Shown: positions 52,048-57,211, counted from the stretch's first letter. The stretch is DNA of 58,236 nucleotides from a virus (IMGVR_UViG_3300024344_000011:1-58236), one strand, 5' to 3'. The notes: generated by a model not told the origin, from the letters alone. Numbers and translations: made by a program.

Positions 52048-52287
52048 ATGCAAGATGTAAACAGTTATTCAACTGCCAGGATATATACTAAATCATTAGC
52101 AAAAGCTCGTCTGCTTGCTAAAGATCAAAAGAAAAGTCAAATAAGAATAATAGAAGAAGCTATCAATCTTTTATGGAGCGATAAAATGAACCAAGAAGAA
52201 CCGATAGATATTATGGAACATTTACCTGAAGAAAAATCCACTGGGAGAGGGATTGAGAATGCGTTCAGCAACAGCAGAAAAGATTAA
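52048..52287 (+). CDS. small ribbon-helix-helix-like regulator
   Basis: YSTARIY strand, then two helices (LAKARLLAK, QIRIIEEAINLL). Confidence 0.55.
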   Translation: MQDVNSYSTARIYTKSLAKARLLAKDQKKSQIRIIEEAINLLWSDKMNQEEPIDIMEHLPEEKSTGRGIENAFSNSRKD

Positions 52288-52816
52288 ACCAAATAAAAAG
52301 TTACGAGGCTTAGAGTTATTTGCCGGGATTGGTGGTATGACTTTAGGTTTTGAAATGGCTTATGGAGAAGACTATGAATGCGTGGCATTTGTAGAGAGAG
52401 ATAAATATTGTGGAAAGGTTTTAAACAAACATTGGAGCGATGTTCCAATATATACAGATATAAGGGAATTTGATTATGACAAAGAAAAAGACAGACTCGG
52501 AAGAATTGACATTGTTCTCGGAGGTTTCCCATGCCAACCCTGGTCAGGGGCAGGAAAGCAACGAGGGGCGCAAGATGACCGAGACCTCTGGCCTGAAATG
52601 TTACGAGTTATTAAAAGCATCACGCCCCGACCTAGATGGATCATTGGCGAAAATGTGCAAGGCTTTGTTAACATGGAGATGGGACTCTCCCGCACGGTCT
52701 CTGATTTGGAAAATGAAAACTACCAAGTCCAACCATTCGTATATGGCGCTGTCGCCGTCCAGGCAAGGCATCAAAGGCAACGGTGTTTCGTTGTGGCCCA
52801 CTCCAAGAGCGACTAG
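52253..52816 (+). CDS. C5-cytosine DNA methyltransferase, catalytic part (motifs I-VIII)
   Basis: LFAGIGG, DI, GGFPCQPWS, ENV, HQRQRCF; stops just after motif VIII. Confidence 0.9.
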   Translation: MRMRSATAEKIKPNKKLRGLELFAGIGGMTLGFEMAYGEDYECVAFVERDKYCGKVLNKHWSDVPIYTDIREFDYDKEKDRLGRIDIVLGGFPCQPWSGAGKQRGAQDDRDLWPEMLRVIKSITPRPRWIIGENVQGFVNMEMGLSRTVSDLENENYQVQPFVYGAVAVQARHQRQRCFVVAHSKSD

Positions 52817-53723
52817 CCGTATGGCATATAGGGAGAAACCTTCCCCTTCTATGATCAATGGAACACATGGTTGGAGTCTTAATGCAGCTGTTACAGATAG
52901 CATGAGTGATACACCACATAGAATGTGGAATACTCCTACAGCTTTTGATTCGGGTAATCCTAATACACAAGAAAAAATAGATAAAGAAGCCAAAACAAAT
53001 AGAAAAGGCAGAGACAAACCAGGTCACTTAAAAGAAGAGGTTATGGTTGAAGAGGGTTTAAGAATGTGGCCTACAGACAATTTAATTCCTACTCCTGTTG
53101 CGACTGATCACCAAGATAATCCGGCTGAACAATTAGAAAATTGGAAGAAGAGAGCTAAAAAGAAAAAAGAAGAAGGAATAAACTTACAGTTTGCTCTTCG
53201 TCATTATGTGCAAATGTATCCCACTCCTACTGCAAGAGATTACAAAGGAGCAAGAAAGCCTGAAACATTAAAAAAGAAAGGCCGAACCGAAACAAACTCT
53301 TTACCTGATAAAGTGAGAGCATTAGAAGACCATAGAATGTGGCCCACTGCGAGAGCCGCTCTAGGTATGAATATGAAAACAACTGAAGGCATGGCAAAAC
53401 TCAGACATAAAGGATATTTAGAAACAGAAGTAGCCCATGTTCATATACACGAAGAAAAAAAAGAGCCTGTGGGAGCATTAAATCCTCCATGGGTTGAATG
53501 GTTAATGGGGTTTCCGATTGGTCATACCTCCATCAATGAAGATATTACATACAATATGGAGGTAGATTATTGGGGGGAAGAACCTCCTATATCAAGAGTA
53601 GCTGTAGGGGTAAAAAATAGAAAAGATAGATTGCGTTGTTTGGGGAATGCTGTTGTTCCTCAATGTTTAGCTGTGATAGCTGAATGTATTAAAGAGGTAG
53701 AAGATGAAGAAAACAATAATTAG
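52476..53723 (+). CDS. C5-cytosine DNA methyltransferase, second part (tandem TRD-like modules, motifs IX-X)
   Basis: AAGGGA RBS at 52462; five PT[PA].A modules; LNPPWVEWLMGFP and RLRCLGNAVVPQ. Confidence 0.85.
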   Translation: MTKKKTDSEELTLFSEVSHANPGQGQESNEGRKMTETSGLKCYELLKASRPDLDGSLAKMCKALLTWRWDSPARSLIWKMKTTKSNHSYMALSPSRQGIKGNGVSLWPTPRATSRMAYREKPSPSMINGTHGWSLNAAVTDSMSDTPHRMWNTPTAFDSGNPNTQEKIDKEAKTNRKGRDKPGHLKEEVMVEEGLRMWPTDNLIPTPVATDHQDNPAEQLENWKKRAKKKKEEGINLQFALRHYVQMYPTPTARDYKGARKPETLKKKGRTETNSLPDKVRALEDHRMWPTARAALGMNMKTTEGMAKLRHKGYLETEVAHVHIHEEKKEPVGALNPPWVEWLMGFPIGHTSINEDITYNMEVDYWGEEPPISRVAVGVKNRKDRLRCLGNAVVPQCLAVIAECIKEVEDEENNN

Positions 53724-53880
53724 CTTAGTGATTCTTTTAGGAGGGTGTAATGCAACGGGAGTATCTAATTGCGATGTGCCTATTCATATAGGAACTGCAT
53801 ATAACAGCGAGGGACAAATGGTTATTTTAGAAGTTGAAGAACCAGGGTGTCCACGCATTGATACTTTTAAGGATTTCTAA
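53704..53880 (+). CDS. small lipoprotein (not in ORF track)
   Basis: MKKTIISLVILLGGC lipobox; GAGGT RBS; 58 aa. Confidence 0.7.
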   Translation: MKKTIISLVILLGGCNATGVSNCDVPIHIGTAYNSEGQMVILEVEEPGCPRIDTFKDF

Positions 53881-53881
53881 A

Positions 53882-54454
53882 ATGATTCCTTTTCCAAAAA
53901 AGAAATACAATGTTATCTATGCTGATCCACCATGGCACTATCAAACATGGGGAGAGGGAAGTAATCGGAATGTAACCTCTAAATACGATACTATGTCTCC
54001 AGAAGAAATCTTTAAACTTCCTGTTAGTGATTTAGCAGATGAAGATTGTGTTTTGTTTATATGGGTAACTTTTCCCAAATTACTAGAGGGAATAAAAACT
54101 ATAGAAGAATGGGGATTTACCTACAAAACCCTTGCGTTTAACTGGGTAAAAACAAATAAAAAACTTAAAACGAATCAGACCTCTTTCTTACCTATGGATA
54201 GCTTTGATACCTTTTGGGGCTTAGGATATTGGACGAGAGCCAACAGTGAATTGTGTCTATTAGCTACAAGAGGAAAACCTAAGCGTGAATCCTGTAAAGT
54301 CCATCAGCTTGTCTATGAGCCTGTTCGGGAACATTCAAGAAAGCCGGATTGTGTCCGGGATAGAATTGTAGAACTCATAGGCGATGTTCCTCGTATCGAA
54401 TTGTTTGCTCGTCAAAAAGCTAACGGTTGGGATAATTGGGGTAACGAACTTTAA
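53882..54454 (+). CDS. MT-A70 family adenine methyltransferase
   Basis: YADPPW, LFIWVT, WGFTY, GLGYWTR, EHSRKP, IELFAR. Confidence 0.92.
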   Translation: MIPFPKKKYNVIYADPPWHYQTWGEGSNRNVTSKYDTMSPEEIFKLPVSDLADEDCVLFIWVTFPKLLEGIKTIEEWGFTYKTLAFNWVKTNKKLKTNQTSFLPMDSFDTFWGLGYWTRANSELCLLATRGKPKRESCKVHQLVYEPVREHSRKPDCVRDRIVELIGDVPRIELFARQKANGWDNWGNEL

Positions 54455-54504: not shown

Positions 54505-54651
54505 GTGGACGGTAGGACTCTACTTTTGATATATGTCTTCCTCTCTATCATATGTCATCCACGGATTGCAGCCACTTGTAATGCCTGGTCTGTATGGACT
54601 GGGCATTACTTTTTACAGGGGAATATATGGCCCACGATAACCAAGCCATGA
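54505..54651 (+). CDS. possible 48-aa membrane peptide (not in ORF track)
   Basis: GTG start just after the promoter, hydrophobic N-terminus, ATGA-coupled to the next gene. Confidence 0.4.
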   Translation: MDGRTLLLIYVFLSIICHPRIAATCNAWSVWTGHYFLQGNIWPTITKP

Positions 54652-56668: not shown

Positions 56669-57211
56669 CTATAATATATTAAACAAAAATTCTTCTGTAG
56701 TTAAGTCGGGTATCTCATTACCCCATGCGTCCCAATTTGGTCGGGTATCTCTAGCAAACAGTTCTATTCTTGGCTCATGCGACATATGTTCTATGACTTG
56801 AATGGTTTCTCCGGGTTTAGCCGAATGCTTACCTCTCTTTGCATAAACCAGGCTAGGTATATTTCTATGTTTAGGTTTTAAGTTACCTTTAACTCCAAAC
56901 AAACAAATCTCATGTTGCCCTCTAAAATAATATCCAATGCCAAATCTATCTTTAGCCCACACCATGTTGGTTACATATCTAAATCCCCACTCCTCCATAA
57001 CCTCAAGGCCGTCCTTTAAAAAGTTATTTGTAACCCATAAATACAACCAACAATTATCATCAGCTAGGTCGGGGACATTTAATTTCTTGATTTCTTCCGT
57101 TTTCATAAGAGGATAATGTCTATCTGCGCCACGCTTTATCTTCCCCCCACCTTGTTCTTGCCAGGGGGGATCAGCTAATATGGTTTTATATTTTTTATCC
57201 GGAAAGAGCAT
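56669..57211 (-). CDS. MT-A70 family adenine methyltransferase (second copy)
   Basis: LADPPW, LYLWVTN, WGFRY, GIGYYFR, KHSAKP, IELFAR. Confidence 0.92.
   Translation of the reverse strand: MLFPDKKYKTILADPPWQEQGGGKIKRGADRHYPLMKTEEIKKLNVPDLADDNCWLYLWVTNNFLKDGLEVMEEWGFRYVTNMVWAKDRFGIGYYFRGQHEICLFGVKGNLKPKHRNIPSLVYAKRGKHSAKPGETIQVIEHMSHEPRIELFARDTRPNWDAWGNEIPDLTTEEFLFNIL

Follow-up and report, generated by a model that had tools for sequence, protein, structure and literature searches.

The DNA analysed here (the window, a stretch of 58,236 bp with a GC content of 0.36) carries a locus in which the conserved motifs of a DNA (cytosine-5) methyltransferase are divided between two reading frames that share part of their nucleotides. 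The question raised by this locus is whether a single methyltransferase gene has been broken, joined by a frameshift, or replaced by two genes encoding the two halves of one enzyme. In our study the two frames, their relatives in viral and prokaryotic genomes and the split methyltransferases described earlier were compared. The first-pass annotation had offered two readings, a +1 frameshift near 52790 or a heterodimeric enzyme whose N-terminal arm is overprinted. We consider it likely that the locus encodes a heterodimeric DNA (cytosine-5) methyltransferase of two separately translated chains, named here alpha (ORF A) and beta (ORF B). The features are collected in Table 1.

Table 1. Coordinates of the features of the methyltransferase locus and its surroundings in the window.
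Feature	Position	Strand	Remarks
79-aa ORF	52048-52287	+	directly upstream of alpha, overlapping the alpha start
Alpha gene (ORF A), motifs I-VIII	52259-52816	+	185 aa from ATG 52259
Motif FAGIGG (I) in alpha	52319-52336	+	sequence reading
Shine-Dalgarno-like AAGGGA for beta	52462-52467	+	inside alpha D-I-R-E codons, 8 nt before ATG 52476
Beta gene (ORF B), frame A+1	52476-53723	+	415 aa from ATG 52476
Dual-coding stretch, 341 nt	52476-52816	+	alpha motifs IV-VIII in frame 0; beta arm and start of module 1 in frame +1
Beta arm, 105 aa	52476-52790	+	alignment A3, AF2 model, homologue searches
Motif PCQ (IV) in alpha	52529-52537	+	sequence reading
Motif ENV (VI) in alpha	52649-52657	+	sequence reading
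Motif HQRQR (VIII) in alpha	52769-52783	+	sequence reading
Five (L/M)W(P/N)TP-type modules, about 35-45 aa each	52791-53477	+	presumed target-recognition region
Motif IX LNPPWVEWLMGFPIGHT on beta	53478-53528	+	sequence reading
Pre-X segment and motif X EEPPISRVAVGVKNRKDRLRCLGNAVVPQ on beta	53577-53663	+	sequence reading; phrog_363 match
58-aa ORF	53704-53880	+	overlaps the beta stop
MT-A70 family gene	53834-54454	+	PF05063, E 6.8e-28; just downstream of beta
14-pair hairpin, then T run	54578-54609	+	after the MT-A70 gene
phrog_359 'DNA methyltransferase' gene	56672-57211	-	E 1.5e-64

The two reading frames of the locus

ORF A is open from TTG 52253 (187 aa), and ATG 52259, with GGGAGAGGGA upstream of it, is its likely start. 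The protein was found to match PF00145 (E 3.1e-39) with residues 18-186 over profile positions 2-164 of 324, which is the front half only, and phrog_363 (E 2.1e-55) over positions 41-216 of 327. The motifs I, IV, VI and VIII lie in order on this one chain and are invariant in the alpha alignment (A2), so that the series FxGxGG, PCQ, ENV and QxRxR of a C5 DNA methyltransferase is present. The frame is closed by TAG at 52814-52816, only 31 nt past motif VIII; this stop is formed within the Thr-Ser codons of the first beta module, and 29 additional stops are present in the alpha frame beyond it. The exact 185-aa ORF was seen on 16 contigs and a sister member of 185 aa on 59.

ORF B extends over 417 aa from TTG 52470, and ATG 52476, at which the 415-aa protein P0001 begins, is the likely start. 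Along this chain the arm is followed by five PTP modules, motif IX, a pre-X segment and motif X. Pfam gave no match to ORF B at E<=0.01; phrog_1008 was matched with an E of 5.8e-31 over profile positions 31-308 of 329, and the overprinted arm, the PTP modules and motif IX of this beta family are all recognized in ORF B (alignments A1 and A3). The stretches LMGFP..T and LGNAVVPQ are taken by us to be motifs IX and X, an assignment resting on sequence reading and PHROG matches: residues 366-415 match the C-terminal part of phrog_363 (E 6.1e-6, positions 266-320 of 327) and also phrog_32758 (E 3e-7), both families being named DNA methyltransferase. The motif X stretch reads ...RLRCLGNAVVPQ, and a spacer of 16 residues separates motif IX from the pre-X segment. 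The first-pass annotation had placed motifs I-VIII on ORF A with its stop at 52816, and had assigned motifs IX-X to a +1 frame open from 52470/52476 behind its own AAGGGA; both assignments hold, the second on the reading of IX and X given above, as does its estimate of about 340 nt of dual coding.

The five modules begin at 52791, 52923, 53064/53085, 53214 and 53337, and they are presumed to be the DNA-recognition part. Their number differs among relatives. An extra PTP module of 36 aa is present in the population variants P0004 and P0005 (gene calls of 336 aa vs 300 aa), and about 100 extra letters near 53329 in the contig of run X13 (record 6) match this variant; modules are therefore gained or lost within one phage population. 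The multispecific C5-methyltransferases of the Bacillus phages SPR, phi3T and rho11s are single chains with tandem recognition modules. The window resembles them in its tandem short modules of varying number between motifs VIII and IX; unlike them it is two-chain, and its modules are putative recognition units only. The predicted fold of the whole beta chain has a mean pLDDT of 60, and Foldseek against the PDB gave nothing at E<=0.001. When the PDB was searched with the sequence of ORF B, the only hits were designed Kelch-repeat proteins, picked up by a short stretch resembling a repeat; these hits were taken as spurious.

The arm was analysed separately. Searched on its own, it matches phrog_1008 (E 6.6e-8), and from a library of 1.84 billion it retrieves 542 cluster representatives (E<=1e-3). 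It was found in 83 of the 120 homologues listed (of 882), within the first 30 residues in 74 of them and further in for 9. Among 53 aligned arms, residues G39, W69, S71, W78 and L92 do not vary. The AF2 model predicts two helices and a beta-hairpin with pLDDT of 77-90 over residues 40-95, and the first 33-35 or so residues are modelled as disordered. For this fold Foldseek gave no match at E<=0.001, and the best Z of VIA-align against 48,161 chains was 3.2, which is not informative. In the ESM Atlas the best scores (0.88-0.89, below the 0.9 line and a lead only) went to clusters of viral hypothetical proteins. Judged from its conservation, the arm is an N-terminal domain of the beta family and not a by-product of the overlap.

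The openness of the second frame is hard to attribute to chance. In the beta frame seven stops occur in 52254-52461 (208 nt) and then none until 53721 (1257 nt), and the third frame has ten stops within the overlap. When the codons of ORF A were shuffled synonymously with its protein kept, the 117 overlap codons acquired 4.6 stops on average in the +1 frame, and zero stops were obtained in 0.07% of 20000 shuffles; with the codon usage of the phage itself the mean was 7.5 and zero was reached in 0.01%. The probability of a stop-free +1 frame is thus about 1e-4 to 7e-4 by synonymous shuffling. In the shuffles that belong to the 75-locus frame survey described below, the bounds of the open stretch were set by the observed stops, which limits their weight. 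The stop-free frame of about 110 codons pointed out earlier is confirmed by these values. Its description as lying in AT-rich DNA overstates the case, since the overlap has a local GC of 0.43-0.52 against 0.36 for the contig; this composition is already accounted for in the synonymous shuffles.

Layouts and selection in the relatives

The relatives were collected with the pattern LN[PSA]x[WF]VE[WF]L, and 570 of its 597 viral matches encoded relatives. We took 84 viral loci, keeping the best 80 of the 570 pattern-derived relatives, and the A chain, the arm, the middle of B, motif IX and motif X were each scored against all stop-to-stop segments. Ten rows were dropped, namely L002 for frame errors, L004, L005, L044 and L077 as duplicates, and L016, L017, L018, L060 and L069 with a locus beginning inside the gene. 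In all 75 distinct viral rows the +1 frame is open over motifs IV-VIII, a region in which 2-13 stops occur in the third frame. As a negative control, a homologue whose overlapping frame is interrupted by stops was sought, and none was found among the viral and genome loci; even the single-frame relative L111 has the +1 frame open over motifs IV-VIII. The conservation of both frames, which had been named as a check on the proposal, is thereby observed in the homologues.

The commonest viral layout is nested (65 of 75 rows, with one more, L054, nested and cut by the locus end), and seven rows are serial as in the window (the window itself, L001, L003, L011, L025, L039 and L052); these counts favour arm-bearing loci, as the loci were picked through motif IX and ranked by likeness to B. 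One further row is three-piece (L019) and one is odd (L028). Prokaryotic genomes were sampled independently with 80 loci out of 544 relatives among 600 matches, and of the 62 that could be classified 58 are nested, two serial (L085, L100), one has motif X on its own segment (L093) and one is single-frame (L111). In the nested layout alpha (frame 0) extends over the whole gene, and a low-complexity linker separates its motifs I-VIII from its pre-X segment and motif X; beta (frame +1) carries the arm, the modules and motif IX and ends there inside alpha. The two frames are open together for as much as 1.6 kb (L006), and beta's motif IX shares its nucleotides with alpha's pre-X segment. Lactobacillus phage Lc-Nu (NC_007501, L165 1458-2006) has a nested beta of 182 aa within its ORF40 'DNA methyltransferase', and only alpha is annotated in its RefSeq record.

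The alpha chain (phrog_363-like), the beta chain (phrog_1008-like) with its arm and modules, and motifs IX and X of this nested phage and prophage family are all homologous to those of the window, and beta starts at the same place with a Shine-Dalgarno sequence. The window differs in that its alpha ends after motif VIII without the long low-complexity linker, and in that its motif IX and pre-X segment are consecutive on beta instead of sharing nucleotides. The window hence shows a minority serial layout, probably a derivative of the much commoner nested layout of the same family. Locus L003, at about 60% identity, keeps the same split, with the same A stop (after ..NSKSD) and the same B layout; in the overlap part of alpha 74 of 110 residues are identical between the two. 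In a tree of alpha motifs I-VIII (69 rows) the serial layout needs five changes, of which well-supported branches force at least four, and the window groups with L001 and L003 (100/99) within a larger clade whose members are mostly nested. This tree was rooted at the midpoint only, so the direction of layout change is not given by it. The DNA of the window's motif IX and pre-X segments has a local likeness score of 9 against a shuffle mean of 7.9, a score reached by 24% of shuffles; no residual likeness pointing to a duplication was found in these two segments, and the comparison neither supports nor excludes a duplication origin of the serial layout.

Some other arrangements were also encountered. 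Motif X lies on its own ORF in the three-piece layouts L019 and L093, the alpha N-terminus is fused to the arm frame in P0046, and motifs I-VIII are fused to the modules and motif IX in P0036, P0061 and P0079. Some of these odd layouts (L019, L028, L093, L111, P0046, P0036, P0061 and P0079) may be assembly errors.

Start signals for the second frame are conserved. At a distance of 30-80 nt upstream of PCQ the +1 frame offers a start codon in 66 of 69 loci, and this codon often comes directly behind the last stop. Among these 66 loci the beta-equivalent start is preceded by a Shine-Dalgarno-like 4-mer in 47 (background 0.22) and by a 5-mer in 35 (background 0.05), the background being drawn from 8752 other positions in the same genes. 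The beta signal is made from conserved D-(I/V)-(R/K)-(E/S) codons of alpha.

Selection on the second frame was also evident. At invariant residues of alpha the codon used fits beta: Leu152 is encoded as YTG in 60 of 68 rows, which gives Trp in beta, and Ala166 as GCT in 62 of 68, which gives Leu. For the glycines of motif I, which lie outside the overlap, all four codons are in use. The codon choice of alpha is thus bent to retain the Trp and Leu of beta. In 24 locus pairs (not all independent, L030 being used twice and L008 and L009 being near-identical) synonymous differences amount to 460 of 1952 (0.24) in the overlap vs 385 of 1068 (0.36) upstream, the overlap value being lower in 19 pairs and higher in 5, and amino-acid divergence in the same pairs is equal (0.18 vs 0.17). 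The reduced synonymous variation expected of an overprinted region is hence present. Between the window and L001, three substitutions fall in the 341 nt of the overlap vs 31 in the 1124 nt outside. These substitution patterns indicate purifying selection on both frames.

Assembly of the enzyme and competing explanations

Two natural C5-methyltransferases are described as working with an alpha and a beta chain in PMC3404938 and PMC2836561, and the precedents named in the first-pass annotation (M.AquI as two polypeptides, M.EcoHK31I with a subunit in an alternative frame) agree with these descriptions. In M.AquI of Agmenellum quadruplicatum (CYCGRG), motifs I-VIII are found on the larger chain, and the smaller one supplies motifs IX-X and what remains of the variable region (PMC3404938). 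The window divides the motifs likewise, with I-VIII on the first chain and the stretches read as IX-X on the second in separate ORFs, a likeness drawn from the description of the motif division. However, the second chain of the window begins within the first gene in another frame, overlapping it by 341 nt and thereby gaining the conserved 105-aa arm, and it is the longer one (415 vs 185 aa), with five repeated modules.

In M.EcoHK31I of E. coli HK31 (YGGCCR), according to PMC2836561, beta is read wholly within another frame of alpha, alpha has motifs I-VIII together with X, beta has motif IX, the N-terminal part of beta is needed for association and the TRD is said to be on alpha. Compared with this description, the beta of the window is also read in another frame of alpha DNA; the nested relatives come closer, with motifs I-VIII and X on alpha and IX on beta. 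The beta of the window is not nested, as it runs 907 nt beyond the alpha stop, motifs IX and X both lie in the beta frame, motif X being on beta instead of alpha, and the conserved modules are also on beta.

In the proposed mechanism alpha and beta would be translated separately from one transcript, beta initiating at its own Shine-Dalgarno sequence and ATG inside alpha, one base out of step. Alpha would provide the front of the catalytic domain, that is SAM binding (motif I), the catalytic Cys (motif IV), ENV and QxRxR, and beta would contribute the five recognition modules and motifs IX and X. The arm may dock beta on alpha, on the analogy of M.EcoHK31I beta, whose N-terminus is needed for association, and the two chains would assemble into one active C5-methyltransferase. 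The two frames, the selection on them, the start signals and the layouts of the relatives are observed; that beta is translated from 52476, that the chains assemble into an active enzyme and that arm and modules act as described is proposed here on the model of the two described split enzymes. The heterodimer with an overprinted arm suggested at the outset is supported by the conservation of the arm, the conserved start signals and the synonymous-site footprint, its assembly being inferred.

A frameshifted pseudogene, or an assembly error that broke one ordinary methyltransferase gene, is hardly credible here. Such an origin is brought to mind by L002, which over 52200-53800 has zero substitutions relative to the window and four single-base insertions (52261, 52680, 52788 and 53189), one of them close to the junction. 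However, these insertions occur in no other assembly and none of them would join the A and B frames, that at 52788 included, and they are taken as errors of assembly in the same phage. At the level of assembled contigs, at which indels were checked, those of runs X7, X11 and X13 from three studies span the junction with substitutions only, and L001 aligns to the window gap-free over 1601 nt. No homologue of at least 85% identity exceeds 415 aa among the 120 of 882 matches listed. With the same split kept at about 60% identity and in six lineages, and with the signs of purifying selection in both frames, the split is real sequence and not an indel, as had been argued in the first-pass annotation.

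A programmed +1 frameshift near 52785-52816, joining alpha to the distal part of beta, would give one chain with motifs I-X in canonical order, and relatives in a single frame do exist (L111, and P0036, P0061 and P0079 with motifs I-VIII fused to modules and IX). Yet the alpha stop lies at varying distances past motif VIII in the six serial lineages (the window with L001, L003, L011, L025, L039 and L052), so there is no conserved shift site, and no known +1 slippery pattern is apparent by reading of the sequence at the junction, which differs among these lineages. A shift at this point would also leave unexplained the open and conserved arm with its own Shine-Dalgarno sequence and ATG, as the +1 frame upstream need not be open, and the nested majority would require two shifts per gene. 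The frameshift near 52790 that had been offered as the alternative is disfavoured on these grounds and we regard it as very unlikely. It also appears unlikely that beta starts at ATG 52821-52823 by termination-reinitiation, which would make the locus an M.AquI-like split and the arm frame an untranslated relic of a nested ancestor. This ATG is only 4 nt past the alpha stop, a shorter and translationally coupled beta is conceivable, and it is the start in most gene calls (the 300-aa MAYREK... form has 36 members in the gene-call clusters vs 4 for the 415-aa form). The 300-aa form, however, loses the arm and cuts module 1, splitting the conserved module LWPTPRATSRMAY.EKPSPSM, a unit left whole in P0009, P0014 and P0061. 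Sister lineage L003 lacks this ATG and retains the arm ATG and the Shine-Dalgarno 5-mer, and between the window and L003 the arm (49 of 101 identical) is about as conserved as the alpha N-terminus (30 of 59). A relic should moreover have gained the 4.6-7.5 stops expected from the shuffles, and the footprint in codon choice argues for selection on the arm. Two separately translated chains, with beta starting at ATG 52476, are accordingly preferred.

Building on the two-chain enzyme, a broader picture can be put forward as a tentative possibility. The arm may be a domain that arose when the best-conserved part of the methyltransferase gene was overprinted, clamping beta to alpha, and the family may switch repeatedly between nested and serial layouts, the window being a living intermediate that still has 341 nt of double coding. 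The PTP modules would then be exchangeable recognition units, and one alpha could serve a re-programmable, possibly multispecific anti-restriction methylase.

Phage setting and significance

The contig is that of a tailed phage, with genes for small and large terminase, portal, major head protein and tail fibre as well as a primase/helicase, a Cas4-like exonuclease and a Sak4-like annealing protein. The stretch is present in 20 public runs from 12 studies (marine metagenomes), and the phage is thus widespread across marine metagenomes; blastn against phage DNA gave six short matches of 60-80% identity and no close relative. Three methyltransferase genes are carried by the phage genome (the split C5-methyltransferase, the MT-A70 gene and the phrog_359 gene), and therefore the split enzyme is probably part of the phage's defence against host restriction.

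The two natural split C5-methyltransferases described above each have a different gene layout. In the present locus and its relatives both of these layouts occur, and alternate repeatedly, in a single very large family of phages and prophages; they offer a natural series for how overlapping genes arise and resolve and how a split enzyme keeps its halves together. Split C5-methyltransferases, including a nested one, were already known; what is new here is a serial layout that retains the overprinted arm, together with repeated switching of layout, and among the papers listed in literature searches none was found to describe the two-frame phage family. The study also bears on annotation, as beta is mostly called as the armless 300-aa protein and the nested beta is omitted in the cultured phage Lc-Nu. 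Since gene callers shorten or omit beta, the presumed recognition chain is missed by methyltransferase catalogues and specificity predictions. Most likely the locus belongs to a large phage gene family whose members are truncated by routine annotation, and is a rare variant of the serial kind within it.

The hairpin with T run is the sole strong terminator-like site near the locus, and its position hints that about 52048-54454 is transcribed as one unit; promoter-like sites near the locus were no more numerous than in shuffles. The 79-aa ORF has no Pfam match, and its product may be a small protein regulating the methyltransferase genes. The 58-aa ORF begins with MKKTIISLVILLGGC..., which has the appearance of a lipoprotein signal with a lipobox, and it may encode a small phage lipoprotein.
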